Positions 2,621-50,501 of a DNA stretch of 64,000 nucleotides are shown in pieces. Numbering within the stretch: position 1 is the first letter of the stretch; each line of letters starts with the position of its first letter. Origin of the DNA: an uncultured Thermoleophilia bacterium (GTDB lineage Bacteria > Actinomycetota > Thermoleophilia > UBA2241). The stretch spans positions 608,001 to 672,000 of the forward strand of contig CAVPCT010000003.1 in NCBI GenBank assembly GCA_963702475.1, read 5' to 3'. Below the pieces are notes generated by a model, which saw nothing but the letters and a program-made list of their open reading frames with translations, ran no database searches and had not been told where the DNA came from. The translations under genes were made by a program, and so were the position numbers.

Positions 2621-3262
2621 GTGAGCGACGGTCCCACCATCTACGCGTCCGAACCACTGCAGACCTACCTGGACCACGCCGCCAGCAACCGCCCGGCGCC
2701 CGGCGGCGGCAGTGTCTCGGCCTGCGTCGGCGCCCTTGGCGCGGCGCTCGTCTCCATGGTGTGCAACCTCACGCTCGGCAAGGAGAAGTTCGCCGACGTC
2801 GAGGCCGACATCCAGAAGGTCGTCGAGGGCACCGAGTCCTGCCGGGCGCGCCTTGAGAAGCTGCTGCAGGAGGACACCACGGCCTACAGCGGCGTCATCC
2901 AGGCATACAAGCTCCCCAAGGAGACCGACGAGGAGCAGAGGGCGCGCAAGGCGGCCGTGCAGGCCGGCCTCATCATCGCCGCCAACGTCCCGCTCGACAT
3001 CTGCAGGGTCGCCGTGGAGGTCTGCCGCTGGTCGAAGACCGCGGCCGAGCTCGGCAACCCCGGCGCCGTGACCGACGCCGGCATCGGCGCCATCCTGGGT
3101 GAGGCCGCCGTGGTGGGCGGCGCGCTCAACGTGAAGATCAACCTCGGCTCCATCGAGGACTGCGACTACGTCGAGACCGCCCAGAAGGCCATCGACGAGA
3201 TGCAGGCGGAGGCCAAGGCCCTGCGCGAAGAGGTGCTGGCCATCACGCTCGCCAAGCTCTGA
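2621..3262 (+). CDS. fchA: Methenyl-THF cyclohydrolase (cyclodeaminase/cyclohydrolase family)
   Basis: PAPGGGSVSA..GALG..L.SMV.NLT and NVKINL motifs; lies between fhs and folD. Confidence 0.9.
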   Translation: MSDGPTIYASEPLQTYLDHAASNRPAPGGGSVSACVGALGAALVSMVCNLTLGKEKFADVEADIQKVVEGTESCRARLEKLLQEDTTAYSGVIQAYKLPKETDEEQRARKAAVQAGLIIAANVPLDICRVAVEVCRWSKTAAELGNPGAVTDAGIGAILGEAAVVGGALNVKINLGSIEDCDYVETAQKAIDEMQAEAKALREEVLAITLAKL

Positions 3263-3290
3263 TCAACCACCCACACACGAGAGGGAAGCC

Positions 3291-29869: not shown

Positions 29870-30949
29870 GTGGCAGACCCGACGCTCAGCATCGACGACC
29901 TGTGCACCCGTGCCCTGGCCGGCGAGACCTTGGAGGAGCGCGAGCTCGAGGCGATGCTGGCGGCCGGACCGGCCGACGCCGAGACCGTGTTCGCGGCGGC
30001 GCGAGAGGCGCGCAGCCGGGTCTCCGGCGACTGCATCTTCCTCTATGGCTTCATCTACTTCTCCACGTACTGCCGCAACGCGTGTGCGTTCTGCTTCTAT
30101 CGCGCCGACAACCTCGAGAGCCCGCGGTATCGCAAGTCCCTGGACGAGGTCGTGGCCATCTGCAACGACCTGGCGGGCTCCGGCGTCGTGCTGCTCGATC
30201 TCACCATGGGCGAGGACCCGGTCATCCACGACGAGCCGGGCTACCGGAGTCTCCTCGACCTGGTCTCGGCCGTGCGCCACGGTAGCGGTCTGCCGGTCAT
30301 GGTCTCGCCGGGAGTGGTGCCGGACGACGCGCTCGCCGGCCTCGCCGAACGCGGCGCGGACTGGTACGCGCTCTACCAGGAGACGCACACGCGGGAGCTC
30401 TACGACCGCCTGCGCGTGCACCAGCCGTTCGAGGAGCGTGTACACGCGCGTGACGCGGCGCGTGGGGCCGGTCTGCTGGTCGAGGACGGCATGCTCACCG
30501 GCATCGGCGACACGCCGGCCGATCGTGCCCGTGCTATCGCCTCCATGCGCGACGCCGCCTGGGAGCAGGTGCGCATCATGACGTTCGTGCCGCAGGCCGG
30601 CACGCCCCTGGAGGACGTGGTGCCGGCCGGCGATCTCGACGAGCTCCTCACCATCGCCGTGCTGCGCCTCGCCTGCCCGCAGGCGCTCATCCCGGCCTCC
30701 CTTGACGTGGACGGCATCGCCGGCCTCGAGCGGCGCCTCAACGCAGGCGCCAGCGTGGTCACGTCCATCGTGCCGCCGACGAAGGGGCTCGCCGGTGTGT
30801 CGCAGAGCGAGCTGGACATCGAAGAGGGCTACCGCACCGTGGAGGGCGTGCTGCCGCACCTCGCGCGTCTCGGCCTGCGCGCCGGCACCGTCGAGGAGTA
30901 CCGCGCCTGGCTGGCCACGGCACACGAGCGCGCGCTGGTGCGGGCGTGA
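29870..30949 (+). CDS. pylB: Methylornithine synthase PylB (radical SAM)
   Basis: FLYGFIYFSTYCRNACAFCFYR, DLTMGED, ALYQET, MTFVPQ.GTP, IPASLDVDG..GL..RLNAGA.VVTS. Confidence 0.95.
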   Translation: MADPTLSIDDLCTRALAGETLEERELEAMLAAGPADAETVFAAAREARSRVSGDCIFLYGFIYFSTYCRNACAFCFYRADNLESPRYRKSLDEVVAICNDLAGSGVVLLDLTMGEDPVIHDEPGYRSLLDLVSAVRHGSGLPVMVSPGVVPDDALAGLAERGADWYALYQETHTRELYDRLRVHQPFEERVHARDAARGAGLLVEDGMLTGIGDTPADRARAIASMRDAAWEQVRIMTFVPQAGTPLEDVVPAGDLDELLTIAVLRLACPQALIPASLDVDGIAGLERRLNAGASVVTSIVPPTKGLAGVSQSELDIEEGYRTVEGVLPHLARLGLRAGTVEEYRAWLATAHERALVRA

Positions 30950-32193
30950 GGCTCCTCGTCGTCGGCGGTAAGCTGCAGGGCACGGAGGCCGCGTATCTCG
31001 CCGGCAAGGCCGGATGGGACGTCGTGCTGGTCGACCGGCGGCCGGCCCCGCCGGCCGCCGGTCTGGTGTCGCGGCACATGGCGCTCGACATCACGGCGGA
31101 CGAGCAGACGGCGCGCGCGCTCGTCGCGTCGTGTGACGCCGTGCTGCCTGCGTGCGAGGATCTCGCCACGCTCGAGTGGCTGGCCGCCCGCGTCGAGACC
31201 TGGGGTGTGCCGCTGCTGTTCGACCTGGCAGCCTACGAGGTGACTCAATCCAAGGCGGCCTCCCGTGAGCTCTTCGCACGCCTCGACGTGCCGTTGCCGG
31301 CCCCGTGGCCGGCCTGCGGGTTCCCCGCCGTGGTCAAGCCGGACGCGGCGTCCGGCAGCGACGGCGTGGCGGTGGTCGGCGACGAGGCGGGTCTGGAGGC
31401 GGCCGTGGCGGTGTTGCGCGCGGCCGGCCACCGGCCCGTCGTCGAGGAGTACGTCTGTGGCCCCTCGCTGTCGTACGAGGTCCTTGCGGCCGGCGGCCGC
31501 GCCTGCGCGCTTCAGGTCACCGGCCTCGAGTTCGACGCCGTCTACGACTGCAAGCGCGTGGTAGCGCCGGTCGGGGAGACCGGCCGCGGCGCCGCGGCGG
31601 CGCCGGTGCGCGCCGACGGATCCACGGTCTGGGAGCGCGCCGTGCCCGAGGGCTCGCTGGCGCGCTTCGCCGCCGTCTCCGAGCACCTCGCCCTGGGCCT
31701 GGGTCTCAGCGGCCTGATGGACGTGGAGGTCATGGTCCGCGACGGCGAGCCGCTCCTGTTGGAGATCGACGCGCGCCTGCCCAGCCAGACGCCGACGGCG
31801 GTGTACTGGTCGAGCGGCCTCAACATCCTCGAGGAGCTGTGGCACACGGTCTCCGACGGCGCGCCCCCGTCGGGCGACGCCGTCCCGCGTCGCGCCTGCG
31901 TGTACCAGCATGTCCGCGTCCGCGACGGGCTGGCGGAGGTCTGCGGGGAGCACGTCATGGGCGGCTGCCGCCCGCTGCGCCTCGTATCGGGGTTCTACGA
32001 CGTCGACGAGGCACTCACCGACTACGAGCCCGGCGCCCGTGAGTGGTGTGCTACGCTCATCGTCTCCGCGGCGAGCGCCGCCGAGGCGCGTGCAGCCGCC
32101 GACACCGCGGCGCGCGAGCTCGCGCGTAGCCAGGGTCTCGAGCTCCTGCCCGAGAACGACCAGACCGTCCTTCCCCAGGAGGCGCGGACATGA
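30946..32193 (+). CDS. pylC: 3-methylornithine--L-lysine ligase PylC (ATP-grasp)
   Basis: VGGKLQGTEAAYL, MDVE, EIDARLPSQTPTAVY.SSGLN, GEHVM; GTGA overlap with pylB. Confidence 0.95.
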   Translation: MRLLVVGGKLQGTEAAYLAGKAGWDVVLVDRRPAPPAAGLVSRHMALDITADEQTARALVASCDAVLPACEDLATLEWLAARVETWGVPLLFDLAAYEVTQSKAASRELFARLDVPLPAPWPACGFPAVVKPDAASGSDGVAVVGDEAGLEAAVAVLRAAGHRPVVEEYVCGPSLSYEVLAAGGRACALQVTGLEFDAVYDCKRVVAPVGETGRGAAAAPVRADGSTVWERAVPEGSLARFAAVSEHLALGLGLSGLMDVEVMVRDGEPLLLEIDARLPSQTPTAVYWSSGLNILEELWHTVSDGAPPSGDAVPRRACVYQHVRVRDGLAEVCGEHVMGGCRPLRLVSGFYDVDEALTDYEPGAREWCATLIVSAASAAEARAAADTAARELARSQGLELLPENDQTVLPQEART

Positions 32194-32996
32194 CCAGGCT
32201 CACCGAGGACGACGTCCGCACCCTCACCGAAGACCTCACCGCGTTCGAGTCCGGTCTGCTCGAGGTCGCAGGCTTGGACCTGCGCACCCTCGCGCTGGCC
32301 ACCGTGGCCGACCCCCCGGTCTGCGTACCGTTGCACGGCGCCCGCATCGCCGCGGTGCCAGTGACGTCGGGTGAGGGGGTCATCTCCGGCTTCACGGAGT
32401 GCGTGGCGGTCATCCTGCGCCATCTCGGCTGCGAGGCGTGGGTGACCGGCCAGCCGGACGTGCGCGGCATCCAGCAGGCCGTTACCAGCCGCGCCGAGGT
32501 CGTGTTCCTCGCCGACGACCACCGCTTCATCGCCCTCGACCTGCGCAACGGCCGCTGTGTCGACGACGACCCTGCCACGGCGGACGGCTACGTCACAGCC
32601 CTCGAGGCCGCCGCCGGAGGGCTGTTCGGCAAACCCGTGCTCCTGCTCGGACTGGGCCCAGTGGGCCGCGCCGCCGCGCGTCGCCTCGTGCGCAGAGGGG
32701 CGAAGGTCGAGGTCGTCGAGCCCAACAGCGAGCGCCTGCAGGCCGCCCTCGACATCGGCCTGCACGTCAGGCCCACCACCCTCGACGAGGGCCTGGCGCG
32801 CTGTGACCTGGTCTTCGACGCCACACCGGCTCTCGACATCATCGACATCGCCGACGTGACCGAACGCACCATCGCCGCCGTGCCGGGTATCCCATCCGGG
32901 TTCACGGCCGCAGCGCGCGCGGCCATGGGCCGTCGGCACATCCACGAGCCGCTGGCCGTAGGCGTCGCCGTCATGGCGGCTCGGGCGCTCGCCTAG
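32190..32996 (+). CDS. pylD: Pyrrolysine synthase PylD (ends in TAG)
   Basis: VPVTSGEGVI.GF, DV.G, ADD.RF, AT..GYV.AL, GLGPVG, HEPL.VGV. Confidence 0.93.
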   Translation: MTRLTEDDVRTLTEDLTAFESGLLEVAGLDLRTLALATVADPPVCVPLHGARIAAVPVTSGEGVISGFTECVAVILRHLGCEAWVTGQPDVRGIQQAVTSRAEVVFLADDHRFIALDLRNGRCVDDDPATADGYVTALEAAAGGLFGKPVLLLGLGPVGRAAARRLVRRGAKVEVVEPNSERLQAALDIGLHVRPTTLDEGLARCDLVFDATPALDIIDIADVTERTIAAVPGIPSGFTAAARAAMGRRHIHEPLAVGVAVMAARALA

Positions 32997-34188: not shown

Positions 34189-34515
34189 ATGCCGACCGAT
34201 CCCAACAAAGCGCGCTACTACCGCAAGCAGATCCCGCTTTTCAGGCTGCTTGAGAAGATGAAGCTGTGGCCCTCGCGGCGCGGCATCCTGCACGGCATCC
34301 GCGAGATCACCCTGCGCGGCGAGTACGCCATCATCGTGACCCACTGCGGCAAACACATGGTGGTGCGCGATTCCAAGACGAGCCGCGCCGCGCGATGGCT
34401 GCGCAACAAGTGGTACGCCGAGGCGTGTCCCAAGTGCCGCATCCCGGAGTGGAAGCTCCAGAAGTACGCCTCCACGCACTTCAATCGGGGCTACGGCTCT
34501 CACCTGAGGGACTGA
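34189..34515 (+). CDS. pylSn: Pyrrolysyl-tRNA synthetase N-terminal subunit PylSn
   Basis: KMKLWPSRRGILHGI, THCG, SRAARWLRNKW, CPKCRIPEWKL (Zn ligands). Confidence 0.96.
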   Translation: MPTDPNKARYYRKQIPLFRLLEKMKLWPSRRGILHGIREITLRGEYAIIVTHCGKHMVVRDSKTSRAARWLRNKWYAEACPKCRIPEWKLQKYASTHFNRGYGSHLRD

Positions 34516-35651: not shown

Positions 35652-36284
35652 ATGGCCACCATCTACGAAGAAGCAGCCCAGACCATCGTCGACGCCGACC
35701 GCGCCGCCGCCGAGGAGGTCGCGAAGCGCGCCCTCGGGCAGGGCCTCGCGCCCGCCGACATCATGCAGAACGGCTTCGTCAAGGGTATCCAGGAGGTCGG
35801 CGAGCTCTTCGAGAGCGGCGAGGTCTTCCTCCCCGAGCTGATGATGAGCGCCGACGCCATGGCCGGGGCCACCGAGGTCACCAACGCCGCCCTGGAGGGC
35901 GAGGCCGCCGCGGCCAAGGGCGTGATCGTGATCGGCACCGTGCAGGGCGACGTGCACGACATCGGCAAGGCCATCGTCATCGCCTACCTGAAGGCCAACG
36001 GCTACGAGGTCCACGACCTCGGCCGCGACGTGCCCGCCGACGCCTTCCTCACCAAGGCCGCCGAGGTCGGCGCGAACGTGATCGGCATGAGCGCCCTGCT
36101 CACCACCACGATGGAGGAGCAGAAGAAGGTCATCAAGCGCGTGCGCGAGGAGGGCCTCGCCTACAAGTGCGTCGTCGGCGGCGCCCCCGCGACGCAGCGC
36201 TGGGCCGACCAGATCGGCGCCGACGCCTACGCCGAGGACGCCTCCGACGGCGTCAAGAAGATCGACGAGCTGCTCGGCGTCTGA
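35652..36284 (+). CDS. Methyltransferase cognate corrinoid protein (MtbC/MttC family)
   Basis: GEVFLPEL cap, GTVQGDVHDIGK (DxHxxG), SALLTTTM, VGGAP, GADAYAEDA. Confidence 0.95.
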   Translation: MATIYEEAAQTIVDADRAAAEEVAKRALGQGLAPADIMQNGFVKGIQEVGELFESGEVFLPELMMSADAMAGATEVTNAALEGEAAAAKGVIVIGTVQGDVHDIGKAIVIAYLKANGYEVHDLGRDVPADAFLTKAAEVGANVIGMSALLTTTMEEQKKVIKRVREEGLAYKCVVGGAPATQRWADQIGADAYAEDASDGVKKIDELLGV

Positions 36285-36311
36285 GCGTCCCGGGAAGCCC
36301 CTGAGGGGCCG
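36256..36311 (+). repeat. Left copy of a 56-bp imperfect direct repeat
   Basis: 50/56 identical to 49482-49537, with a 23-bp exact core ACGAGCTGCTCGGCGTCTGAGCG. Confidence 0.9.
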
Positions 36312-37120: not shown

Positions 37121-37128
37121 AAATCGTT

Positions 37129-37450
37129 TCACAATGACGCTCGCAGTCGCCGGAAGCAGATCAGGCAGCAAGCCAGTTCGAGGAAGGCCTCGTGTACGTC
37201 GGCGCGCCGCTCCTAGCGCACGAGCAGGCGGCGGAAGCCGTGCAGCCAGGCGATGGTGCGCTCGACGACCCAGCGCTGGGCACCGAGACCGGAGCCGCGA
37301 GAGGTGCCGCGCCGCGCGATTTGCGGGGTGATGCCGCGCGCTCGCAGCCTGCGGCGGTAGGCTTCGTGGTCGTAGCCGCGGTCGGCGAGCAGACGCCGGG
37401 GGCGCAGCGCAGCCGGGGCCGCACCCCTACCGCCGCCGGTGATGGCGGGC
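37129..37450 (-). mobile_element. IS5-family transposase C-terminal remnant
   Basis: LLADRGYDH...RARGITPQIARRG...RWVVERTIAWLHGFRRLLVR*ERRADVHEAFL; internal TAG at 37213-37215. Confidence 0.85.
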
Positions 37451-38026: not shown

Positions 38027-39253
38027 ATGCGAGTAGCTATTCTCGGAGCCGGCGCGCAGGGGTTCGTACTCACGTGGTACTTCGCTGCCTGCGCCGATGT
38101 GGACAGCATCGTCGTCGGCGACAACGAGCCGGAGCGGGCGCGGCAGGTCGTCGATCGCTGGGGTGCAGGCAAGTCAGAGGCCGTCATCGTCGACGCCACC
38201 GACATCGACGCCGTGGCACGCTTCGCTGCCGGCGCCGACATCCTTATCAACGCCGTGCTGCCGGAATGGGACGTTTCCTGCATGCAGGCGGCGCTGCAGG
38301 CCGGCGCACACTACATCGACATGGCCACGCGCAGGCCGGGCGGCACCGTCGACGACGGCTACATGGACCAGATGGACCTCGACGAGGCCTTCCGCTCGGC
38401 TGGTCTCACGGCTCTCATCACCACCGGCATGACACCCGGCGTCACCAACACTCTGGCGGCTATCGGCTACGAGGAAATGGACCGTTGCGAGGCTGTGCAC
38501 GTGCGCGCCACCTCCAACTTCCAGTCGGAGAAGCCCATACAGGTCTGGTCGCAGGAGACATGGTACATCGACTGCCAGACACCATGTCTCTACTTCTCAG
38601 AGGGCACCTTCCACCGCGCCGCGCCCTTCGGCGGACGCGAGTACTTCGACTTCCCGAGGCCGTACGGTCGCCGGCCCGTCACCTTCCACGAACACGAGGA
38701 AGCCACCACGCTGCCACGCTGGTTGCCCAGATTGGGCGAGAAGGGGCTGCAGTGCGTCGACTTCAAGATGGGTGCGAGCGACGCCGGCCTGGATGCGCTG
38801 AAGGCCGTCGTCGATAGCGGCATGGCCAGCCCGGAGCCGCGACAGGTGAAGGGTGTCACCGTGAGGCCCCTCGACGTGCTGGTCAGTAACCTGCCGCCCA
38901 GCCCGTCTCCCGACGAAGTGGCGGAGATGGCTCGGGCCGGCAAGATCGTGGACGAGGGTGTGTACGTCATCGACCTGCACGCAGAGCTCGACGACCCGCC
39001 CACCGAGTCGTTCTACGTCTACCCGCCGAGTATCCAGGAGCTCACCGAGATGTGCCCGGGCGCCAATCGCGTCAGCTATGGCACCTCGGTGCCCTGCGCC
39101 GCCTACGCCCGGTTCATCCTGGACGGCGTCATCGATACCCGTGGCGTCGTGCCGCCCGAAGGCCTGCCGCGCGAGGTGCGTCTGGCCTACGTGAAGGAGC
39201 TCGAGCACCGGGGTCTGCGCTTTGAGCGGCGCTCGCTCCGGTCGGTCTACTGA
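38027..39253 (+). CDS. Saccharopine dehydrogenase-like NAD(P)-dependent amine oxidoreductase
   Basis: ILGAGAQG, HYID, GMTPG.TN, HEHEE, GVVPPE. Confidence 0.85.
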   Translation: MRVAILGAGAQGFVLTWYFAACADVDSIVVGDNEPERARQVVDRWGAGKSEAVIVDATDIDAVARFAAGADILINAVLPEWDVSCMQAALQAGAHYIDMATRRPGGTVDDGYMDQMDLDEAFRSAGLTALITTGMTPGVTNTLAAIGYEEMDRCEAVHVRATSNFQSEKPIQVWSQETWYIDCQTPCLYFSEGTFHRAAPFGGREYFDFPRPYGRRPVTFHEHEEATTLPRWLPRLGEKGLQCVDFKMGASDAGLDALKAVVDSGMASPEPRQVKGVTVRPLDVLVSNLPPSPSPDEVAEMARAGKIVDEGVYVIDLHAELDDPPTESFYVYPPSIQELTEMCPGANRVSYGTSVPCAAYARFILDGVIDTRGVVPPEGLPREVRLAYVKELEHRGLRFERRSLRSVY

Positions 39254-39327
39254 GACCGCTCCGAGGAGCGGTCGGCCCTCTGACCGACGCAACGATTCCG
39301 ACTGTGTAGCCGAAAGAAAGGAAGAAC

Positions 39328-40821
39328 ATGGCCGTTGATGCCAAAGCGCTTGCGAGCATCGGGGACAACGCCAATCTCATCGGCGGGAAGTGGGTGTCTG
39401 CCATCTCAGGCGAGACGTTCGATGTGCTCAGCCCGGCCACGGGCGAGGTGCTCGCTTCCGTTCCGAAGTGCGGCAAGGCCGATGTGGACGCTGCTGTCGA
39501 CGCTGCCGCCAAGGCGTGGACCGTCTTCAAGGACGTGCCTCTCTACGTGAGAGCAGACGCGCTGCGTCGGATGGCGGAGCTGATCCGCGAGCGGACAGAG
39601 GAGATCGCGCTCGTACTGAGCATGGAGCAGGGCAAGCCGTACGAGACCGAAGCCTTCCCTGAGGTCGAGGAGACGGCCTTCAACTTCCAGATCTTCGCCG
39701 AAGGGGCGGCCTCTTGGGAGGGACCGACCATCCCCTTCCGCGACCCGAACATCCGGGCTCACGCGATCTACTCACCCTACGGCGTCGTGGCGATCATCTC
39801 GCCATGGAACTTCCCGGTCATGATCCCTGCCGAGTACATCGCTCCGGCATTGCTGACCGGCAACACGGTCATCAGCAAGCCGGCATCCACAACGCCCCTG
39901 TCCATGATCCTCACGGCCCAGTGCATTCAGCAGGCGCTTGACGAGTTCGGGTTTCCGGGTGGGGTGTTCAGCCTGCTGACCGGTCCAGGCGGTGTTGTGG
40001 GCGAGCAGCTGGTGACCCATCCTCAGGTGGACCTCATCGGTCTCACCGGGGAGACCATCACCGGTGAAGAGATCTGCTCCAAGGCGGGGATCAAGAAGAC
40101 CTTGATGGAGCTTGGCGGCAACGGGCCCCAGATCGTCTGCGATGACGCCGACCTCAGGGAGGCGGCGAAGGCCGCTGCGCTCGGCTGCTTCTACAACGCC
40201 GGTCAGGTCTGCTGCGCAACGGAGCGGATCCTTGTGCAGGAGAGTGTCCATGACGAGTTCGTCAAGCTGATGCTTGAAGAATTGGCGAACTGGAAGCTCG
40301 GCGATCCTCTCGACGCGGCAACGACCGTGGGGCCGATGAACAACGCGGCGACGGTCGCGAAGGTCGAGGAGCACCTCGCGGATGCGGTGAGCAAGGGAGC
40401 GACCGTTCTGGCGGGCGGCGGACTGGAAGATGGCCGTCCGACCAGGCTGTATTTCCAGCCGACAGTCGTGGACGGCGTCGGCCGCAATACCCTGCTCAAC
40501 ATGGAGGAGACGTTCGGCCCGGTCGCACCCATCTTCACGTTCAAGACAGACGCTGAAGCAGTCGAGATCGCGCACGAGAGCGGCTACGGTCTGGTCATGG
40601 CCGTGTTCACCTCCTCGCTCAAGAGGTCCCATTACTACGTTGACCAGCTGCGCACGGGCAACATCGTCGTGAACCAATCGACCGACTATTGGGAAGCACA
40701 CCTGCCGTTCGGCGGCGGAGGCGGCACCAAGAGCGGGCACGGCCGGTTGGGTATGCGCTTCGCTCTGGAAGACCTGACGTATCTCAAGATGGTGACCGTC
40801 GACATCGCCAAGTGCCACTGA
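39328..40821 (+). CDS. Aldehyde dehydrogenase
   Basis: PWNFP, MELGGN, NAGQVCC, EETFGP. Confidence 0.95.
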   Translation: MAVDAKALASIGDNANLIGGKWVSAISGETFDVLSPATGEVLASVPKCGKADVDAAVDAAAKAWTVFKDVPLYVRADALRRMAELIRERTEEIALVLSMEQGKPYETEAFPEVEETAFNFQIFAEGAASWEGPTIPFRDPNIRAHAIYSPYGVVAIISPWNFPVMIPAEYIAPALLTGNTVISKPASTTPLSMILTAQCIQQALDEFGFPGGVFSLLTGPGGVVGEQLVTHPQVDLIGLTGETITGEEICSKAGIKKTLMELGGNGPQIVCDDADLREAAKAAALGCFYNAGQVCCATERILVQESVHDEFVKLMLEELANWKLGDPLDAATTVGPMNNAATVAKVEEHLADAVSKGATVLAGGGLEDGRPTRLYFQPTVVDGVGRNTLLNMEETFGPVAPIFTFKTDAEAVEIAHESGYGLVMAVFTSSLKRSHYYVDQLRTGNIVVNQSTDYWEAHLPFGGGGGTKSGHGRLGMRFALEDLTYLKMVTVDIAKCH

Positions 40822-40861
40822 GGCCGGACCACCGAGTATGGAGCAAGGAGACGGGGGACTC

Positions 40862-42145
40862 ATGAAACGCATGAAGACGACTCGCCGGATGCTGCCGATA
40901 CTGGCCGTACTACTCCTGATAGCGGTTGGAGGTAGCGGCGCTGTACTTGCTGCATGCGGGGGGGACGAAACGACGAGCGACGACGCAACAGGCGGCGCTC
41001 CAATCAAGATCGGCGCACCCCTGCCGATCACGGGCTCGTACGCACTCGACGGCCAGCACATGCAGACCGGGATGCAGATGGCGATCGACGATCTCAATGC
41101 TCAGGGCGGTGTCCTGGGCCGCCAGCTCGAACTCGTCACGTTCGACATCGGGGAGTTGCTCGCCGAAGACATCAACGCCTCCGCGGAGTACCTTCTCGGG
41201 AAGGAGAAGGTCGACCTGGTCGTGGAGGGTTACGCGGACTACGGCACGGACTTCCTGGCCTACGGCGCCAGGAGCGACGTACCGTTCATCAACGGCACGG
41301 CCTCTTCCAAGGCGGCCGAGCTGGCTGCAGAGGATCCGGAGGCCTACTGGAACATGTTCGACGTGTTCCCGGTCGAGGCGGACTGGGGAAGACGAGCATG
41401 GGACGGCGTGGCCAAGTTCGAGAGTGACTACCAGATCCCGGCCAAGCGCATCGCGATCATCCATGGAGATCTCGAGTGGGATCTCAAGTACACCGCGTCG
41501 ATCGCCGAGGCGGCTGAGGCTGCAGGCTGGACCGTTGTCCTCAACGAGACCGTTCCCTATGGCACGACAGACTGGGGACCGGTCCTGACGAAGCTCCGGG
41601 CAGCCGAACCGACCGCGGTCTCGTGTTCGATCCTGTCGGTCAAGGACATCTCGGCCTTCGTCAACCAATTCATGGAGGATCCGCCCCCCGCGACGTTGGA
41701 CATCTCGTCGATGATTGTTCTGAAGGACGTACAGGACGCGTGCGGCGACAACCTCATTGGGGTCATGGGCTACGTGACCAGCTACTTGCCTCCGAGCGAA
41801 ACGAACGACGACTTCAAGACCAGGTACAAGGAGAAGTTCGGCTACGATCTGCCTCTCACCACTCCGCCGTCGACCTACGATTCGGTCATGATCTGGGCGC
41901 AGGCGGTTGAGGCGGTCGGTGACGTGAGCGACCACAAGGCGATTGCCGACAAGATCAGGGCCACTCCTTACCAGGGGCTCGGGGGTCTTTACGACTTCAA
42001 CAACCCCGGACAGACCGTGCTCTACGGTCCCGACTTCCCAATCGGGTACGCGCAATACGCTGGGAACAACGAACTGCTCTTCTTCGGCGTTGATGAGTTC
42101 TTCCTGCCGCCCTGGATCCAGCCTCCATGGCCCAAGGCCGAGTGA
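40862..42145 (+). CDS. ABC transporter substrate-binding lipoprotein (Liv/HAAT type)
   Basis: Lipobox LAAC, IKIG..LP.TG, NAQGGVLGR. Confidence 0.88.
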   Translation: MKRMKTTRRMLPILAVLLLIAVGGSGAVLAACGGDETTSDDATGGAPIKIGAPLPITGSYALDGQHMQTGMQMAIDDLNAQGGVLGRQLELVTFDIGELLAEDINASAEYLLGKEKVDLVVEGYADYGTDFLAYGARSDVPFINGTASSKAAELAAEDPEAYWNMFDVFPVEADWGRRAWDGVAKFESDYQIPAKRIAIIHGDLEWDLKYTASIAEAAEAAGWTVVLNETVPYGTTDWGPVLTKLRAAEPTAVSCSILSVKDISAFVNQFMEDPPPATLDISSMIVLKDVQDACGDNLIGVMGYVTSYLPPSETNDDFKTRYKEKFGYDLPLTTPPSTYDSVMIWAQAVEAVGDVSDHKAIADKIRATPYQGLGGLYDFNNPGQTVLYGPDFPIGYAQYAGNNELLFFGVDEFFLPPWIQPPWPKAE

Positions 42146-42230
42146 TCGCCAGGTTCTCGAGGCCACGGTCGAGCGGGTCCGATCCCCGCTCGACCAGCCC
42201 ATCGAAAGGGCCCATGGGGGCGGTGACGCT

Positions 42231-42941
42231 GTGTCCCTGAGTCTGCAGAACGTCACTCAGCGGTTCGGCGCACTGGCCGCGGTGGACGACGTCAGCTTCG
42301 ACGTGGAGAAGGGTGAAGCGCTGGGCATCGCCGGCCCCAACGGGGCCGGCAAGACGACGCTCTTCAACACGATCTGCGGCTTTCATCGCCCCGAGGGCAA
42401 GATACTTCTGGACGGGATCCGACTCGACAGTCTCCAACCGCACCGCGTCTGCCGGCTGGGCGTGGCCAGGACGTTCCAGATCCCTGCACCGTTCGATTCG
42501 ATGACTGTGCGGCAGAACGTTGAGGTCGGCGCCGTCTTCGGTGGTGGCAGCCATCGGAGAGAGGCCATGCACGCGCGAGTCGACGAGGCGCTGGACCGAG
42601 TGCACATGCTGGAGAAGGCTGAGTCGCCTGTCCGCACGCTCAAGCTCTACGACAAGAAGCTGGCGTTGCTGGCGGCAGCTCTCGCTACGGGTCCCAGCGT
42701 CCTTCTGCTTGACGAAGTGGCTGCTGGATTGAGCGCTGTGGAAATGAAGGAGTTGTTCGAGCTCATACAGCATCTCAACCGCGAGGCTGGCCTGACCCTG
42801 CTGGTCATCGAGCACATCATGAGCATCCTTACCGGGCTGTGCGATCGGATCCTCGTGATGAACGATGGAAAGGTGCTCGCCATCGGTGAGGCGGACGCGG
42901 TCATGGCCGATCCGGACGTGAAGGAGGCTCTGCTGGGATGA
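42231..42941 (+). CDS. ABC ATP-binding subunit (LivG-like)
   Basis: GPNGAGKTT, LLLDE, IEH. Confidence 0.9.
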   Translation: MSLSLQNVTQRFGALAAVDDVSFDVEKGEALGIAGPNGAGKTTLFNTICGFHRPEGKILLDGIRLDSLQPHRVCRLGVARTFQIPAPFDSMTVRQNVEVGAVFGGGSHRREAMHARVDEALDRVHMLEKAESPVRTLKLYDKKLALLAAALATGPSVLLLDEVAAGLSAVEMKELFELIQHLNREAGLTLLVIEHIMSILTGLCDRILVMNDGKVLAIGEADAVMADPDVKEALLG

Positions 42942-43666
42942 GCATGCTCGAAGTCGAGAGCCTCAACGTCAGCTACGGTGATATCCAGGTCATTCGCGAC
43001 ATCAACCTCACGGCAGAAGAGGGCCAACTGACGGCCATCTTCGGACCGAACGGGCACGGCAAGACCACGCTGCTGAAGACCATCTGCGGTCTGGTGACCC
43101 CGACGTCAGGCACCGTGCGCGTCGACGGCGAGGAGTTCCAGGGTCGCCCGTCGGACCAGCATGTTGATCGAGGCATTGTCCTTGTTGCCGAGGAACGCCA
43201 CCTCTTTTCGGAGATGACCGTGATGGAGAATCTCCAGCTTGGTGCGTTCTCGCGTGCCGCTCGCGCCGCCGAGGATGCCAATCTCACCCGCGTGTTCGAC
43301 ATGTTCCCAAAACTGGCCGATCTGCGTCGGCGGGAGGCCGCGACACTCAGCGGCGGAGAAGCGCGGATGCTCGCCATCGGAAGAGGGCTCATGTCGTGCC
43401 CGCGACTGTTCGCGGTCGACGAGCCGTCATTCGGGCTCGTTCCGAAGTTGCGCCACGTGGTCTTCGACTCCCTGCGCCAGTTGGCAGATGGCGGCTTGAC
43501 CGTGCTCGTCGTCGAGCAGTCGACGGCGCGGATCTCGGAACTCGCGGACCAGGTGTATCTGATCGAAGACGGGGCAGTCGTGTTTGGTGGCGATACAGCA
43601 GCGGCGCTGCAGAACGAAGAATTCAAGCGCGTCTACCTCGGCCAGGGGCCGGGAGGTGAGGAGTGA
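42938..43666 (+). CDS. ABC ATP-binding subunit (LivF-like)
   Basis: GPNGHGKTT, LSGGE, DEPS. Confidence 0.9.
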   Translation: MSMLEVESLNVSYGDIQVIRDINLTAEEGQLTAIFGPNGHGKTTLLKTICGLVTPTSGTVRVDGEEFQGRPSDQHVDRGIVLVAEERHLFSEMTVMENLQLGAFSRAARAAEDANLTRVFDMFPKLADLRRREAATLSGGEARMLAIGRGLMSCPRLFAVDEPSFGLVPKLRHVVFDSLRQLADGGLTVLVVEQSTARISELADQVYLIEDGAVVFGGDTAAALQNEEFKRVYLGQGPGGEE

Positions 43667-44547
43667 GCTGGCGATCCCTTGGTGACGTGTTGATCAGCGG
43701 TCTGACCATCGGCAGCGTGTACTACCTGATGGCTCTCGGATTCACGCTCGTATACGGCGTTGGCCGCGTGCTCAATCTGGCCTACGGGTCCTTCTTCGTG
43801 TGGGGAGCCTACGTGTGCTGGGTGTTCACGGTCGGCGTCGCCACCTTGCCCATAGTCGTGGGCGGCCTTATTGCAGTCCCCCTGCTCTTCTTGCTTGGCG
43901 TGGCCGTTGACCGGGGTGTGGTGAATCCGCTGCGGAAACGGCCGGAGTTCGACTTCAGCGTCCTCCTGGCGACCCTGGGCCTTGCCATGGTTCTGGACAA
44001 TCTGGCGCTCGTCATCTTCGGACCGCGGCCAAAGGCGCTGCCTGATTTCGGCAGCTGGAGCCTGGAGGTCGGAGGCTTCGTGCTCAGCGCGCAAGCACTC
44101 ATCATCATTGCGTTCGCCGGCGCCTTTGCCTTCGCACTGACGCTGTTTCTGCAGCGCACCAAGACGGGCATGAGCATCCGCGCGGTCGCCCAGGATCCGA
44201 CAGGGGCGCGCATGGTCGGCATTCGGCTCAACCACGTGTACGCCCTGACGTTCGGTCTGTCGGTCGCCTTGGCCGCTGCCGGAGGGATTCTCCTGGCGCA
44301 GCGGTTCTTCATCACGCCACTGGGCGGCTGGACCATTCTCATCAAGGCTCTCATCATTGCTGTAGCTGGAGGCATGGGGAGCCTGAAGGGGACCCTGGTG
44401 GCCGCCTTCGCTCTGGGCATGCTCGAAGCGTTCGTGGGCTGGCAGGCGGGGCTTCTGTGGGTGATGCCCTTCTGGTTCGGAGTCCTTCTCGCGATCCTGC
44501 TCACAAGGCCTCACGGACTGTTCGGGGCAGCGGGGAGGCGGGTGTGA
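43663..44547 (+). CDS. ABC permease (LivH-like)
   Basis: ALGFTLVYG..LNLA.G, IRAVAQD, GGMGS. Confidence 0.9.
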   Translation: MSWRSLGDVLISGLTIGSVYYLMALGFTLVYGVGRVLNLAYGSFFVWGAYVCWVFTVGVATLPIVVGGLIAVPLLFLLGVAVDRGVVNPLRKRPEFDFSVLLATLGLAMVLDNLALVIFGPRPKALPDFGSWSLEVGGFVLSAQALIIIAFAGAFAFALTLFLQRTKTGMSIRAVAQDPTGARMVGIRLNHVYALTFGLSVALAAAGGILLAQRFFITPLGGWTILIKALIIAVAGGMGSLKGTLVAAFALGMLEAFVGWQAGLLWVMPFWFGVLLAILLTRPHGLFGAAGRRV

Positions 44548-45551
44548 TACGCAGGCGCGCATACGTGCTCGCTGGTTGCATCGTTGCCATTCTGGCCGTG
44601 CTGCCGCTGATAGTGGGCAACGACTCGTACATGATGAGACTCCTTCTGATCAGCATGTTGTGGGGCGGACTGGCCCTGTCGTGGGATCTGCAGCTCGGGT
44701 ATGCAGGGATCTTCAACTTGGGCCAGATCGGCTTCTTCGTGTGTGGTGCGTACGCGTCTGCGATGCTGACCATGTACGTCGATATCTCCCCGTGGCTCGG
44801 CTTGGTTGTAGGGGCGGCGGTCGGCGGTCTCATCGCAGCTGCCATCGGCGTGGCGTGCCTTCGCCTGACGGGTATCTACATCGCTCTGCTCACGCTGGCT
44901 TTCTTTGAGGTGCTTGGCCCCCTGCTCACCCTGGGGAAGCCGTGGGGGACCGGGGGGAAGGCTGGGCTCCTGCCCATACCGCCTTTGAGTTGGGGCGGTC
45001 AGCCATTCTCGGTCTATGACCCGCTGCCGTGGTACTACTGTGCCCTTGGACTCCTCGTGGTCTGCATGGTCGTGGTGGTATGGGTCGTCAGGTCGCGACT
45101 GGGCCGTGGATTCATCGCCCTGCGCGACTCCGAGTCGCTGGCACAAGCCCTGGGAGTCGACCGCTTTCGCTCCTCGCTGGCGGTAGTAGGCATATCCGGC
45201 GCGCTGGCGGGGATGATGGGAGCTTTCTACGCCAGCTACCAGGGAGTCCTCTCGCCACGCCTGCTCGGACTCGACCTGTTCCTCTTCCTGATCATTGCGA
45301 TCCTCGCAGGCGGCGTGGGCAAGTTCCCAGGGGCAGTTCTGGGAGCGATAGCGGTGACGTTCGTCACGGACAGTCTGCGCCCCACCGGGACCTACCGTCT
45401 CTTGATCCTCGGGGGGCTCGTCGTCGTTCTGGTGCTGTTCCTTCCTGCCGGTGCGATGGGCGGTCTGGATTCGGTGATCCTGCGCATCAAGCGCTGGCGA
45501 AGAGGAGGCGTACAACCCCCGGTCGTGGATGTCGATCCGAAGGAGCCATGA
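44544..45551 (+). CDS. ABC permease (LivM-like)
   Basis: GYAG..NLG, GAYA, LRL.G.Y.AL.TL, SRLGR..ALRD. Confidence 0.9.
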   Translation: MIRRRAYVLAGCIVAILAVLPLIVGNDSYMMRLLLISMLWGGLALSWDLQLGYAGIFNLGQIGFFVCGAYASAMLTMYVDISPWLGLVVGAAVGGLIAAAIGVACLRLTGIYIALLTLAFFEVLGPLLTLGKPWGTGGKAGLLPIPPLSWGGQPFSVYDPLPWYYCALGLLVVCMVVVVWVVRSRLGRGFIALRDSESLAQALGVDRFRSSLAVVGISGALAGMMGAFYASYQGVLSPRLLGLDLFLFLIIAILAGGVGKFPGAVLGAIAVTFVTDSLRPTGTYRLLILGGLVVVLVLFLPAGAMGGLDSVILRIKRWRRGGVQPPVVDVDPKEP

Positions 45552-45734
45552 TGGCGCGGAGCGTACTGAGGCACGTGCGGCCCGCGCATCTGGGTGTCAT
45601 CTCATCCGCTCACGGCGACCGGTCGATACCGCGATGAGTCCGGAGCGTTTCACTCCCCGGCGTGAGCCTTGAACTGCCAGGGTCGGCGGGGAGTCTCGCC
45701 ATGGAGCAAATGTAGCCTTGGGGTGTGACGAGCG

Positions 45735-46688
45735 ATGCTCACCGTCACCCTTGGTCTGACGGCGGCGTTCTGCTACGCCCTCGTCGACCTTCTGATGGTG
45801 CGAGTCGTGCGCACGGTGCCCGTGGCATTGGCGTTGGTGTGGCTGGTCGGTGTCGGCGCGCTCATCAGTGTGCCGCTGGCGCTCTTCGTGGACGGGGTCC
45901 CGAGTGGCAGCGCGGAGTGGCGCGGGGTCGGCATCGCGGCCATCGGCGGAGTCACGTACATGGCCGCGTTGGGGGCGATGTTCCGCGGGCTGGCGGTAGG
46001 CCAGCTGTCCATCATGTCGCCGATCACCGCGCTTGAAGGCGCGTTCGCGGCGCTGGTGGCCATCGTGCTCGGCGAGCAGCTCGGCGGCCTGGCGGCCGTG
46101 GGTCTGCCGCTCGCCGTGATCGGCGCCGTTCTGGCGTCGATTGTGCGAGTGTCGGCCGAGCCGGCCGTCGCGATGACGTCTGCGGTCGAGGTCGCCCAAG
46201 CCGAAGGCGGCTCCTGCGGCGCGAACGCCGGCACCCGGGACGAGAAGGGCGGCCGTGCACCCGGTGCCTGGGAGGCCGCCCGCGGCGCCGGCTGGGCGTT
46301 ACTGGCGGCCACGGCGGGCGGAACCACCATTCTCATCTACGGGTGGGCCGCCGACCTGCCGCCGTTCTCGGCTGTGGCCATGTCCCGCCTGGTGAGCTTC
46401 CTCATTGTGCTTGCCTACGCGGCCACGCATCAGGGCCTGGCTCTGCCGCGGGTGTGGCGCCCGCGGGTCGTTTTCGCAGGCTGTGTCGAACTGGCAGCGT
46501 TCGTGGCGCTGGCGGCCTCCACCGCACGTGGCCCCGTGTCGGTGGCCGCGGTGACGACCGCTCAGTTCGCCACGTTTGGCGTCATTCTGGGAGTTCTGAT
46601 ACTGCACGAACGCCCGCTCCTACAGCAGCGTGTGGGCATCCTCGCCACCCTGGTGGCCGTGACGCTGCTCGCCCTCTCGGAGGTATAG
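45735..46688 (+). CDS. EamA/DMT family transporter (ends in TAG)
   Basis: Two 5-TM repeats, LGE and LHER ends. Confidence 0.8.
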   Translation: MLTVTLGLTAAFCYALVDLLMVRVVRTVPVALALVWLVGVGALISVPLALFVDGVPSGSAEWRGVGIAAIGGVTYMAALGAMFRGLAVGQLSIMSPITALEGAFAALVAIVLGEQLGGLAAVGLPLAVIGAVLASIVRVSAEPAVAMTSAVEVAQAEGGSCGANAGTRDEKGGRAPGAWEAARGAGWALLAATAGGTTILIYGWAADLPPFSAVAMSRLVSFLIVLAYAATHQGLALPRVWRPRVVFAGCVELAAFVALAASTARGPVSVAAVTTAQFATFGVILGVLILHERPLLQQRVGILATLVAVTLLALSEV

Positions 46689-46743
46689 GCCGCCCGGGAG
46701 AGGCCCCGGGGCGGCAGACAAGTCAACCACTGGAGAACTCTCT

Positions 46744-47439
46744 ATGTGCGCCGCAATCGACAAGAACCGGACAGCAGTGCTGGATTCCGAAGCGGGAGCG
46801 GTCCGGCACGCGCCGTTCGAGGATCCATCCCTCACCCTGCCTGAGCCTGCCAACGAGATCGTGCAGGCGGCGCGCCGCCTGCTGCTGCTCGGCGGTTGGG
46901 AGGCCCTGCGCGTCGACGCCATCGTTCGCGAGGCTGGCAGGAACAAGGCCTCGGTGAAGTACTACTTTGGCAATAAGCAGGGCCTCATCACCGCCCTCAT
47001 CGACTCGCTTGACCACGAGCAGTGCCTCGCCTTGGCCGAGCGCACCGCCGCAGCCGACGGGGAAGAGCGCCTCAGCCGCTACATCATCGGACAGACCGAG
47101 CTTGCCAGCGACGCCGAAGCGTTTCTCCTGTTCTTCGATGTCCTGCCGCACGTGATTCGCGACGAAGAGCTGCGCAGGCGAGTAGCGCCACTCTATGAGT
47201 GGTACCGGCATATGAACATGGTGTGGCTGGGCCTCACCGACAGGGTCACCGACGAGAACCGGGACCGCCTCAGGGCGTTCGTCGCACTGATGGTCGCGGT
47301 GGTGGACGGGCTGGCCATCCAGGCGTCGCTGCAGCCGGAGGATTTCGACGTGGCCGCCTCTTTTGACATCCTTGAGATCTTCCTCAAACGCTGCCTTGAC
47401 GAGGTGGTCACGGGAACTGCTGATGGCGCCGCAAGTTGA
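46744..47439 (+). CDS. TetR family regulator (paralog of 16281-17000)
   Basis: HTH ..VKYYFGNK; shared LPHV..D.ELR.RVA.LY.WYR motif. Confidence 0.88.
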   Translation: MCAAIDKNRTAVLDSEAGAVRHAPFEDPSLTLPEPANEIVQAARRLLLLGGWEALRVDAIVREAGRNKASVKYYFGNKQGLITALIDSLDHEQCLALAERTAAADGEERLSRYIIGQTELASDAEAFLLFFDVLPHVIRDEELRRRVAPLYEWYRHMNMVWLGLTDRVTDENRDRLRAFVALMVAVVDGLAIQASLQPEDFDVAASFDILEIFLKRCLDEVVTGTADGAAS

Positions 47440-47580: not shown

Positions 47581-47689
47581 GCGGTCGCGCCCGCCGACAC
47601 GGACGGGGCGACGAAGAGGATGGCCACCGTGCATCTCAATGAATCCCCTCTGTGGGTCTAGCGCCCCGCGCATGAGCAGACGCGGCCAG

Positions 47690-47941
47690 TCCCAGCCCAA
47701 GCTGATCGACCGCCGCGTGCTGGAGGAGTGGGCTGCCGCCGGCAGCACGGACCTCCACCAGCGCGCGCAGGAGGAGGCGCGTCGCATCCTCGCGACGCAC
47801 GCCCCGGAACCGCTGCCGGACGCCGTGGCGCGCGAGATTCGCGGCATCGTCGACGCGGCCGACCACGAGGCGGCGTCGACGATGAACAGGCGGCGCCAGA
47901 GGGCACCGAGGAGCCTCGCCACGCCCTGCCGTGCGCGCTGA
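47690..47941 (+). pseudogene. C-terminal remnant of a trimethylamine methyltransferase (MttB family)
   Basis: PKLIDRR..EEWAAAGSTDL..RA.EEARRILATH.PEPLPD is the typical MttB C-terminus; the rest is missing. Confidence 0.75.
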
Positions 47942-47976: not shown

Positions 47977-49365
47977 ATGGAGAACAGCTACCCGACGCGT
48001 GACGGCGACGGATCGCTCGTGCGCATGACTCGCGGCCAGCTTCACTCAGAGCTGGAGGAGGGGACGCAGGCGGCGGCAGCGCGCGCCAAGGTCCCGCCCC
48101 TGACGACGGACGAGCTGGACCACCTGCTCGACATCTGGGCGTCTCCGGCTCGCTTCTCGTCCGTCGACATCGGTGACGAGGTCGTGCTCACGTACGACGG
48201 GTCGGGCTCGAAGACGGTCGGCACGCGCACGCAGGACCTGCTCATCTACGAGCAGATGATGGGCGCCGACTCCGTGGAGCTCGCGCACGTCGACTACTCG
48301 TTCAAGGCCGTCAAGACCATCCTTCCGCACGAAGCGCAGAACATGAAGGACGCCCAGCTCGTCCTGACGGCGCCGATGATGTACGGGGCGATGCCCAACC
48401 TGGGGCTGTACTCCCAGCCGGATGGGCCCGTGCCCAACTGGTCGGAGCTCCTGCCGATGACGAAGATCGCCGAGGCGCGTGCCGCCCAGGAAGAGGCGAT
48501 CGAGCACGCCGTCAAAGACATGGTCGCGGTCGCCGACGCTATGTGGGAGGCGGGCGCCGACGGGATCGACTTCGACACCGCCGGCGCCGCCGGCGACGGC
48601 GACCTCCTGGCGACGCTTCGCGCGGTCGAGAAGATTCGCGCAAAGCATCCCGACATGGGCATCGAGGTCGGCATGGCCGGCGAGTTCGTCCTCGGCGTGC
48701 ACGGTCAGCTCGAGTACGACGGCGTGCGCCTGGCCGGGCTCTGGCCTCGCGCCCAGATGGAGCTCGTGCGCCGGGCGGGCGCGACGATCTTCGGCCCCGC
48801 GGTCAACGTGAACACGCGCAAGTCGGGCGCCTGGAACATCGCCCGGGCGCTCACCCTGGTCAAGCCGTGCATGGATGTCGCCGAGATCCCCGTGCACATG
48901 AACGTCGGCATGGGCGTCGGCGGCGTCCCGATGAGTAGCTACCTGCCGCTGGACGCCGTGTCCCGAGCATCCCGTGCCTGCGTCGACATCCTGCGGCTGG
49001 ACGGTCTGTAGGTCGGCACGGGTGATCCTCTGGGCATGCCTTGTGCCCACGCGATCGCCTCGGGGATGTGCGGCATGCGCGCTGCTGGAGATCTGGTGGC
49101 GCGCATGCAGATCACTCGGGGGATGCGGATACATGAGGCCAAGGCCTACGTGGCCGAGCGGCTGGGGGTCGGTCCGTCCGACCTCTCCGACCCGCTCGCG
49201 ATGGCGGACGTGCGTAGGCACCATCAGCTGGGACGCATCACGACGTTCGAGATGAGCTACGCGAGCGAAAGTAGCGCGATGGAGTCGAAGTTCCGGATTG
49301 CCGAGCTGCTCGACCTCCCGATCAACTGCGTGCAGCGCTTCAGGCGGCACGCCGGGCTCGCGTGA
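47977..49365 (+). CDS. mtbB: Dimethylamine:corrinoid methyltransferase with pyrrolysine at codon 345 (TAG 49009-49011), 462 aa
   Basis: TRDGDG, DYSFKAVK, YGAMPNLGLY, DTAGAAGDGD, MGVGGVPM, DGL-[TAG]-VGTGDPLGM..AH..ASGM.GMRAAGDLVARMQ; homology continues in frame past the amber codon. Confidence 0.95.
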
Positions 49366-49481
49366 GCCCGGACGACCGGGGACCGGGAACGATCTGCTGA
49401 AAGGGATCGGCGTGCATACAGGCGCCGCGCGACCGCGGCTACTGAGAGCGGGATGTGGTATAGGCAGGAGGTGGAGACTCG

Positions 49482-49537
49482 AGAAGATCAACGAGCTGCT
49501 CGGCGTCTGAGCGGCCCGGCAGGCCCGTAAGGGGCCG
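49482..49537 (+). repeat. Right copy of the 56-bp repeat (orphan corrinoid-gene 3' end, KINELLGV*)
   Basis: 50/56 identical to 36256-36311. Confidence 0.9.
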
Positions 49538-49643: not shown

Positions 49644-50501
49644 TCAGATATTGAGGCGGACGCCGTCGAAGTACGACAGGCTACGGCCGGCGCGCTCGAT
49701 GTTGGGAAAGCCCTCGCGGACCATGATGAGCCTCTCCAGGCCGAAGCCCAGGCCCACCCACGGGTCCATGACGCCCCAGTTGCCGTCCAGTGGGTGCGGG
49801 CCCATGCCGGCCGAGCACACCTCGATGCCGCCGACCTCGACGTCGATCATCTGGCCGTACACCTCGGACTCGGTCCTGACCAGGTCGTACGTCTTCACGC
49901 CGGCGGCGTCCATGACCACGGCCGCGAGCTCCGTCATCCGCTCGCGGCATCTCTCCTCCGGCGTGCCGAGTTCGACCAGGTTCAGCATGGTGAACTCGTT
50001 GAGGTGGCTGGACCCCTTGCTGTCACGGCGAAAGCACGGCCCGATCTCGTAGATGCCGAACGGACGGCCCCACATACGACCCAGGCGCCTCAGCATGGTG
50101 TACAGGTTGGGCGCCAGCATGGGTCGCAGGCAGCGGCCGTCCTCGAGCCAGAAGACCTGCTCGCGCAGGGGGTGACCGTGCTCGATGCCCATTCTCGTCA
50201 GCGATTCGGCGGCGATGATGAGCGGCGTGACCATGGGCACGAACCCGGCGGCGCCGAGTGCTTCGCGCAGCGCCGCCTCCAGCTCGAGCAAGCGAGGCGC
50301 CACTGCGCCCCCCTTCAGGTCTTTCAGGTGGCGCCGCCCGGCGCGCACGAGCTTGTCCTCGGCGGCGCGGAACGCGGTGTCGCGCTCCCCGGCGTCCGCG
50401 AAGGTGGCGTCGGCCAGCTGACTTGCACCGCCGAGCTCGCGCAGGCGCTGCACCTGGGTCGCCGAGAGGCGCACGCCTCCCGAGTCTGTCTGTTCACTCA
50501 C
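49644..50501 (-). CDS. pylSc: Pyrrolysyl-tRNA synthetase catalytic subunit PylSc
   Basis: QVFW, CLRPMLAPNLY, EIGPCFRRDS.G..HLNEFTMLN, VYG, GFGLERL, RSLSYFDG. Confidence 0.96.
   Translation of the reverse strand: MSEQTDSGGVRLSATQVQRLRELGGASQLADATFADAGERDTAFRAAEDKLVRAGRRHLKDLKGGAVAPRLLELEAALREALGAAGFVPMVTPLIIAAESLTRMGIEHGHPLREQVFWLEDGRCLRPMLAPNLYTMLRRLGRMWGRPFGIYEIGPCFRRDSKGSSHLNEFTMLNLVELGTPEERCRERMTELAAVVMDAAGVKTYDLVRTESEVYGQMIDVEVGGIEVCSAGMGPHPLDGNWGVMDPWVGLGFGLERLIMVREGFPNIERAGRSLSYFDGVRLNI

Follow-up and report, generated by a model that had tools for sequence, protein, structure and literature searches.

In M. barkeri, the pyrrolysine (Pyl) residue of MtbB has been demonstrated by mass spectrometry, and the enzyme methylates MtbC from dimethylamine (DMA), according to the available parts of two articles (PMC2933860, PMC9842639). 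Among bacteria, Actinobacteriota MAGs from Stordalen Mire express Pyl mttB and mtbB (PMC10805028). The accessible part of the supplement to that study lists several MtbB hits per MAG, including forms of 343-344 aa, with nine rows for one MAG classed as Thermoleophilia UBA2241; in the accessible sections, all Pyl MtbBs are treated as DMA-specific, and a paralog clade, the pyl locus and family-wide spread are not discussed. The word 'actino' is absent from the available text of PMC12626013 and from the first 300,000 characters of PMC11467909. Multiple Pyl methyltransferases have been described, in the portions of these reports at hand, for 'Ca. Formimonas warabiya' DCMF (23 of 96; PMC6778437), the Olavius delta-1 symbiont (six MtbB and two MttB; PMC1976440) and marine Deltaproteobacteria (PMC8318568). 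Pyl-dependent MtbB has thus long been known and is published for Actinobacteriota, and the gene described here is a further case. Its value lies in scale and divergence: PylSc occurs in 54 of 58 genomes of the family, single genomes hold several MtbB paralogs, and the loops of one MtbB clade are altered.

Like M. barkeri MtbB (O93661; PF09505, TIGR02368, EC 2.1.1.249), the protein encoded in the window (the whole stretch of 64,000 nucleotides that was analyzed) shows a full-length family match, a homologous amber codon and the core motifs. In contrast to the M. barkeri system, the host is a bacterium, an uncultured member of the Thermoleophilia, with predicted tetrahydrofolate/Wood-Ljungdahl acceptors instead of coenzyme M, the synthetase is split into PylSn and PylSc, no cognate corrinoid gene is adjacent, and the protein has a deletion of ~11 residues and an insertion of 4 residues in loops. 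The supplement rows available from PMC10805028 give identities to O93661 of 40-47% for relatives of this type, and the Stordalen Mire MAGs belong to the same phylum as the host. Similar to DCMF, the Olavius symbiont and the marine Deltaproteobacteria, as far as the available text on these organisms goes, the host has pylT, pylSn, pylSc, pylBCD and Pyl paralogs, and also uses TAG as a stop. The 26 TAG-bearing loci of the source genome are similar in total to those of DCMF and include more MtbB than the Olavius symbiont, in a different phylum.

The frame of the mtbB-family gene (Table 1) begins with ATG at 47977, preceded by an RBS-like GGGAGA at 47963-47968, runs for 344 codons to the TAG in the context DGL-TAG-VGTGDPLGM, and continues for 117 more codons to a TGA at 49363-49365. 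Standard gene calling splits it into a 344-aa ORF and a 109-aa ORF from ATG 49036, as the sequence-only reading of this DNA had expected. Query coverage was at most 74% in all 120 database homologs among the matches listed, so public collections hold the truncated form. That the two ORFs constitute one frame, also proposed in that reading, is borne out by the 462-aa read-through product, on which both PF09505 (584.9 bits, cut-off 25, aa 4-457) and TIGR02368 (470.2 bits, cut-off 369.1, aa 2-457) span the TAG. The sequence after the TAG is as conserved as the sequence before it, with dN/dS values against three orthologs of 0.15-0.19 and 0.17-0.23, respectively. Third-position G+C is 0.84 after the TAG and 0.92 before it, and the segment after the TAG lies below a crude coding-score filter that 20 other methylamine-methyltransferase sites exceed. 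Thus 47977-49365 is one MtbB-family gene with an internal TAG, and we consider it very probable that this codon is read as pyrrolysine.

Table 1. Features of the window that bear on the mtbB-family gene
Feature	Position	Strand	Remark
fhs, FTCD_C cyclodeaminase (fchA-like) and folD (predicted methyl branch)	741..4157	+	fhs is the sole copy found in the assembly
pylB	29870..30949	+	TIGR03910 438.3 > 348.2
pylC	30946..32193	+	TIGR03909 323.8 > 248.3
pylD	32190..32996	+	TIGR03911 209.6 > 150.05
pylT, tRNA-Pyl, CUA anticodon	33046..33118	+	
pylSn	34189..34515	+	TIGR03912 126.5 > 51.15
Corrinoid protein of the pyl locus	35652..36284	+	TIGR02370 passed, MtbC model not
59-bp direct repeat, left copy	36253..36311	+	left boundary of the block, formed by the corrinoid gene's 3' end
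IS5-family transposase fragment	37123..37423	.	72-74% DNA identity to plasmid copies
Other cargo: saccharopine-dehydrogenase-like, aldehyde dehydrogenase, Liv-type ABC transporter, EamA, TetR	38027..47439	+	
3' remnant of Pyl-type mttB	47681..47881	+	67 codons
mtbB-family gene	47977..49365	+	462 aa, predicted Pyl at codon 345, short-loop clade member
In-frame TAG, putative pyrrolysine codon	49009..49011	+	strand 8 of the predicted TIM barrel
59-bp direct repeat, right copy	49479..49537	+	88% identical, right bound of the block
pylSc	49644..50501	-	TIGR02367 314.3 > 178.15

Several lines of evidence place the TAG at the conserved Pyl site of MtbB, as the earlier reading had claimed. The Rfam model PYLIS_2 (RF02509, mtbB) matches 49009-49108 (+) with 75.5 bits (gathering threshold 36). 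All 100 model positions are aligned, and the TAG occupies the first three of them, in a consensus that reads O-I-G-V-G-D-P-M-G-M. Homologs with methanogen names (the cluster of P0126/P0298, Methanomethylophilaceae) end at the column aligned to the TAG. Among the 30 rows examined, out of 115 in the supplement of PMC10805028, proteins of 343-344 aa can be aligned with M. barkeri O93661 through residue 354-355, and separate second fragments resume at residues 359-375; through these published BLAST rows, the TAG corresponds indirectly to about residue 355/356 of O93661. PYLIS_2 serves here to fix the position only, as the segment 49009-49100 folds no better than shuffled sequences (z 0.29), which does not support a functional PYLIS hairpin.

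A nonsense mutation or a sequencing error that splits a pseudogene would give the same pair of ORFs, and three other mtbB loci of the assembly do carry frameshifts. This explanation is refuted by the conservation of the codon and can be given next to no credence: all 45 near-complete homologs, from several phyla, contain a single stop codon, and in each it is a TAG aligned with this one; the Rfam position falls on the TAG, and the Pyl system is complete. The 45 homologs are hits that span at least residues 35-400 in 29 loci (L001-L029), with shorter and frameshifted hits omitted, from named genome records of Thermoleophilia, other Actinomycetota, Bacillota, Desulfobacterota and Spirochaetota. 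Within the genus, 13 of 13 orthologs retain the TAG, with an identity of 84-89% after it and 82-86% before it; as the homolog and ortholog sets consist of kin and overlap, their counts are not independent. Selenocysteine in place of Pyl was considered and rejected, as two mttB matches have TGA, neither of them at the Pyl column. When residues 346-462 were searched among proteins of 254-809 aa, no full-length close homolog without Pyl scored. One protein of 463 aa, P0128, matches PF09505 over its full length (457 bits, 37% identity) and has Trp in place of Pyl; its core motifs are altered and it forms a single-member cluster on a long branch. It may represent a homolog of MtbB that lacks Pyl, or else an error.

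The read-through product was modeled with AlphaFold2 on a 52-row alignment, with K in place of Pyl. The model (pLDDT 94.5) has eight alternating strands (69-73, 99-102, 134-139, 196-202, 228-233, 271-273, 306-309 and 343-346), and residue 345 is predicted to lie within the eighth, at its C-terminal end, with the next helix and ~100 residues encoded after the TAG. The 344-aa product would accordingly be an unfinished barrel. The best structural match is the N-terminal domain of methionine synthase (1q7m, Z 18.3, rmsd 3.4, 247 aligned), followed by 9ssp (Z 17.6) and the M. mazei methyltransferase 4ay7 (Z 17.4), which we take to be MtaA; the top matches are cobalamin-linked methyltransferase barrels. 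No MtbB relative was found by sequence in our copy of the PDB at E values up to 1, and MtmB and MttB are absent among the listed fold matches, which excludes nothing.

The pylB, C, D, T, Sn and Sc genes are each present once in the assembly. Within the genus, 47 of 54 genomes have a PylSc that scores above the cut-off; the 54 of 58 mentioned above are other genomes of the family, to be set beside 7 of 47 genomes of a second family and none in ten other sampled families of the class. PylD matches occur in 78 of 88 genomes of the family. Two small near-complete genomes of the genus (G048 and G049, 1.7-1.8 Mb) have no PylSc, PylD or MtbB match, and a third (G004, 93% complete) has a TAG-bearing mtbB and no PylSc or PylD match.

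In the source genome, TAG ends 470 of the 3431 called genes of at least 300 nt, and 21 of these are Pyl sites by motif. Reassignment of TAG to Pyl throughout the genome is thereby rejected, as TAG is still the stop in ~13-14% of called genes. Four genomes that lack a PylSc match were sampled over 100 kb each, and TAG makes up 20-22% of their stops (17/82, 14/70, 19/96 and 18/82) by a home-made caller trained on the source genome; TAG usage in the source genome shows mild depletion at most. Since TAG remains a normal stop, the codon is read ambiguously and has not been reassigned. A feedback loop that acts through a TAG stop codon at the end of pylD was also discarded, as only 8 of 30 loci have TAG there. 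Further observations concern the pyl locus itself. A tRNA-Pyl was found 28 times in 30 pylD loci. Shortly before pylT, a TACAAT/TAGAAT box recurs in many relatives (L108-L137), located at 33030-33036 in the window, which suggests that pylT has its own promoter. A GerMN + Gmad2 lipoprotein-like gene (33170-34177, -) lies between pylT and pylSn, and an apparently frameshift-split radical-SAM-like gene (34574-35460, -) between pylSn and the corrinoid gene, with a radical-SAM-like gene at the same position in relatives. A nitroreductase-family gene (29034-29696, +) is located directly upstream of pylB.

The window's mtbB is one paralog among many. The source genome contains seven intact and three frameshifted mtbB genes, all ten with the TAG in place, and two fragments. 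For MtmB there are five matches, one with TAG. The MttB family has 75 matches, and among the best 61 that were aligned, 15 have TAG at the Pyl column, so that the TAG-bearing loci comprise 10 mtbB (3 of them frameshifted), 15 mttB and 1 mtmB. The 46 MttB rows without TAG have at least 13 different residues at this column, which points to wide substrate diversification. In the 24 genus relatives first drawn, PF09505 is always present, with 2-20 matches each.

Five of the seven intact copies, including the window's, fall in a short-loop clade that comprises 13 of 31 rows and has an SH-aLRT of 100 and a long stem, in trees that were both quick searches with SH-aLRT only and midpoint rooting. The two intact copies outside it, on contigs C9 and C2, are of the canonical type: they keep the long loop of the methanogen-named sequences and are 46-48% identical to the window's copy. 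Compared with methanogen-type and canonical copies, the clade lacks ~11 residues in the loop that follows strand 1 (5-6 when compared with other bacterial copies), and 4 residues are added in the loop at 420-432. The model is least confident in these two loops, which vary among the paralog groups; their residues, as well as residues 104-105 and 319-323, differ between groups. The five intact short-loop paralogs are 54-62% identical to each other and form separate orthologous groups. The core motifs DYS, YG-MP, DT, H-N-G and O-x-G-x-G-D are kept in the window's MtbB. Identity to the methanogen-cluster protein P0126 is 43% for both the window's and the C2 copy, and 46% for the C9 copy. In other genera of the family, the window's mtbB has matches of 58-71% identity in 10 of 10 tested genomes, whereas four Pyl-positive genomes of the second family reach only 49-55%; judged by these comparisons, the clade is specific to the host family and does not occur in those four genomes. 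The C9 copy has a corrinoid gene of its own next to it, within an island that also contains Pyl mtmB and mttB (TMA/DMA/MMA), and may be the better candidate for the DMA enzyme of this genome. The proposal in the sequence-only reading of DMA demethylation by the window's copy is weakened by this, as the copy is one of ten TAG-bearing mtbB genes and falls in a diverged, family-specific clade, with canonical copies elsewhere.

The genomic context of the gene is not its native one. The window's mtbB is the last gene of a 13.2-kb block inserted at the 3' end of the corrinoid gene, with a cargo G+C of 62-66% over 38-46 kb, against ~70% for the genome. In locus L011, the ortholog is preceded by an intact mttB, and the mttB remnant of the window shares 69% identity with residues 423-489 of that gene. 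Between TetR and this remnant lies a short stretch (47440-47680), which to the eye resembles the start of what is presumably an IS3-type transposase gene. Of the 53 other genomes of the genus, 16 contain an ortholog of the window's mtbB, at 82-85% identity. In ten native loci, non-Pyl mttB is always adjacent, and the neighbors include TetR (8), Pyl-type mttB, class III aminotransferase, lysine 2,3-aminomutase and RACo activator (6 each), and an agmatine-deiminase-like gene and a Lys/Arg/Orn-type ABC transporter (3 each). This cluster is gone in the window, where only the mttB codons are left upstream of mtbB. By its sequence, the block was inserted into the pyl locus and carries mtbB as mobile cargo.

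As the block was inserted at the 3' end of the corrinoid gene, the closeness of mtbB to this gene is incidental. The proposed pairing with the corrinoid protein at 35652 is not supported: in 25 of 30 loci of relatives, this gene (81-89% identity) and pylSc are arranged tail to tail, no more than 1.5 kb apart, and four of the five other loci are cut by contig ends. It thus belongs to the pyl locus rather than to the native cluster of the window's mtbB. Within ~10 kb of the mtbB orthologs, corrinoid genes represent one family, in 3 of 10 loci. The corrinoid protein at 35652 scores 219.6 with the MtbC model NF041607 (cut-off 350), and the one beside the C9 copy is also below it (208.7), so the model does not discriminate. 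The gene at 35652 is one of ~25 corrinoid-like loci in the source genome. The conserved pyl-linked corrinoid protein may still act as a shared acceptor for the many paralogs without a nearby corrinoid gene. A stretch of 675 bp that includes this gene occurs twice (window 35637-36311 and C2:35971-36645, 99.85% identity), in C2 at 3.3 kb from the canonical-type mtbB; this is either a recent duplication or an assembly artifact.

Given the lost upstream mttB and native cluster, and since no sigma-70-type promoter was found in 45.5-49.7 kb by a scan that is poor for Actinomycetota, the window's copy may be weakly expressed. Taken further, the gene could be silent cargo, moved by insertion and cut off from its promoter, or yield mainly the truncated product. 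The truncated mttB, the repeat-bounded block with its IS5 fragment and the common use of TAG as a stop in this genome agree with such a fate, but it is improbable in view of the intact frame, the RBS-like site, a branch length of 0.065-0.075 like that of the orthologs, and the low dN/dS on either side of the TAG. In a search for expression, no run contained more than 13% of the sequence words. Two RNA libraries from a single study yielded short contigs of relatives that extend across the TAG (48802-49130 with 10 differences and 48910-49105 with 14); they stem from other strains and come with no silent control, and RNA cannot show read-through.

Our data are best explained by insertion of pyrrolysine at the TAG through the host's own pylTScSnBCD system, in competition with termination, which would yield a 462-aa TIM-barrel methyltransferase with Pyl at the end of strand 8. 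If the enzyme works like its methanogen counterparts, its Pyl residue would capture a secondary N-methylamine through the nitrogen atom and offer the methyl group, in trans, to the Co(I) form of a corrinoid protein. A pterin-binding methyltransferase would move the methyl group to tetrahydrofolate, to be oxidized through MetF/FolD/Fhs or used for acetyl-CoA synthesis. A methyl-THF:corrinoid methyltransferase scores above the cut-off at C3:503805, and a CODH/ACS cluster, MTHFR and three RACo loci are found elsewhere in the source genome. The gene set fits anaerobic methylotrophy through the Wood-Ljungdahl pathway. For the earlier suggestion that the methyl groups feed the fhs/fchA/folD branch, the route genes do exist and the single fhs lies in the window.

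The most probable role of the window's MtbB is the Pyl-dependent demethylation of some secondary N-methylamine. That this amine is DMA has a chance just short of even, and the same can be said of a larger R-NH-CH3 amine. The enzyme could be a plain DMA isoenzyme among paralogs that differ in regulation or partner rather than in substrate, which is plausible without being favored. The TIGR02368 equivalog cut-off is passed, the core motifs are kept, the distance to P0126 equals that of the C2 copy and is near that of the C9 copy, and orthologs stand beside Pyl-type mttB. Pyl-type MttB produces DMA from TMA. However, a canonical-type copy with its own corrinoid gene is already present in the C9 Pyl mttB/mtbB/mtmB island, and the five short-loop paralogs persist as separate groups with group-specific loop residues.

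The short-loop clade may instead have radiated onto larger secondary amines, such as N-methylated lysine, ornithine, diamines or sarcosine-like compounds, a reading we hold tentatively and rate somewhat below an even chance. The enzyme would then act at the last-but-one step of a stepwise demethylation, after non-Pyl MttB (quaternary amines) and Pyl-MttB (tertiary amines). The strong support and long stem of the clade, the altered loops that vary by paralog group, the similar multiplication of the MttB family in this genome, and the native cluster of the orthologs, with its two mttB types, aminotransferase, lysine 2,3-aminomutase and Lys/Arg/Orn-type transporter, all agree with such a radiation, each indirectly. 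Conversely, the pocket residues are deduced from barrel topology without a solved MtbB structure, the neighboring deiminases or MttBs could simply release DMA, and our literature search found no paper on a non-DMA Pyl-MtbB or a diverged Thermoleophilia MtbB clade, with subscription journals and preprint supplements outside its range. It is conceivable, if short of probable, that this family of anaerobic Thermoleophilia has radiated Pyl-dependent MtbB into several stable subfamilies that demethylate larger secondary amines, namely N-methylated amino acids or diamines. If true, pyrrolysine would have a role in catalysis that goes beyond mono-, di- and trimethylamine, in a lineage that is widespread in soils and sediments, and this radiation would be hidden from annotation because each gene is cut at the amber codon.

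These genes make it testable whether pyrrolysine catalyzes anything other than methylamine activation, and the window's gene and its kin are targets for a first MtbB structure. They also bear on the competition of bacteria with methanogens for methylated amines in wetlands.

No new Pyl protein family was found among 56 TAG-ended calls with a coding-like continuation, of which 20 are methylamine methyltransferases, by a filter that is not sensitive, as it missed the window's own Pyl site; most of the others look like adjacent in-frame genes, for which TGA gives 88 such cases. In-frame TAGs were also seen in a corrinoid-protein fragment (C9:221584-221958) and at two sites on C5, in an epimerase-like gene (near 869788, -) and in a unit of a repeat protein in which other units have Trp (near 891680, -). 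These three are probably point mutations or errors, which Pyl suppression could mask. The source genome further contains a tRNA-Sec (C3:167171-167268) and two short redoxin-like genes with an in-frame TGA and a coding continuation (C6 near 284042 and C1 near 14931), and it likely uses a 22-amino-acid code.
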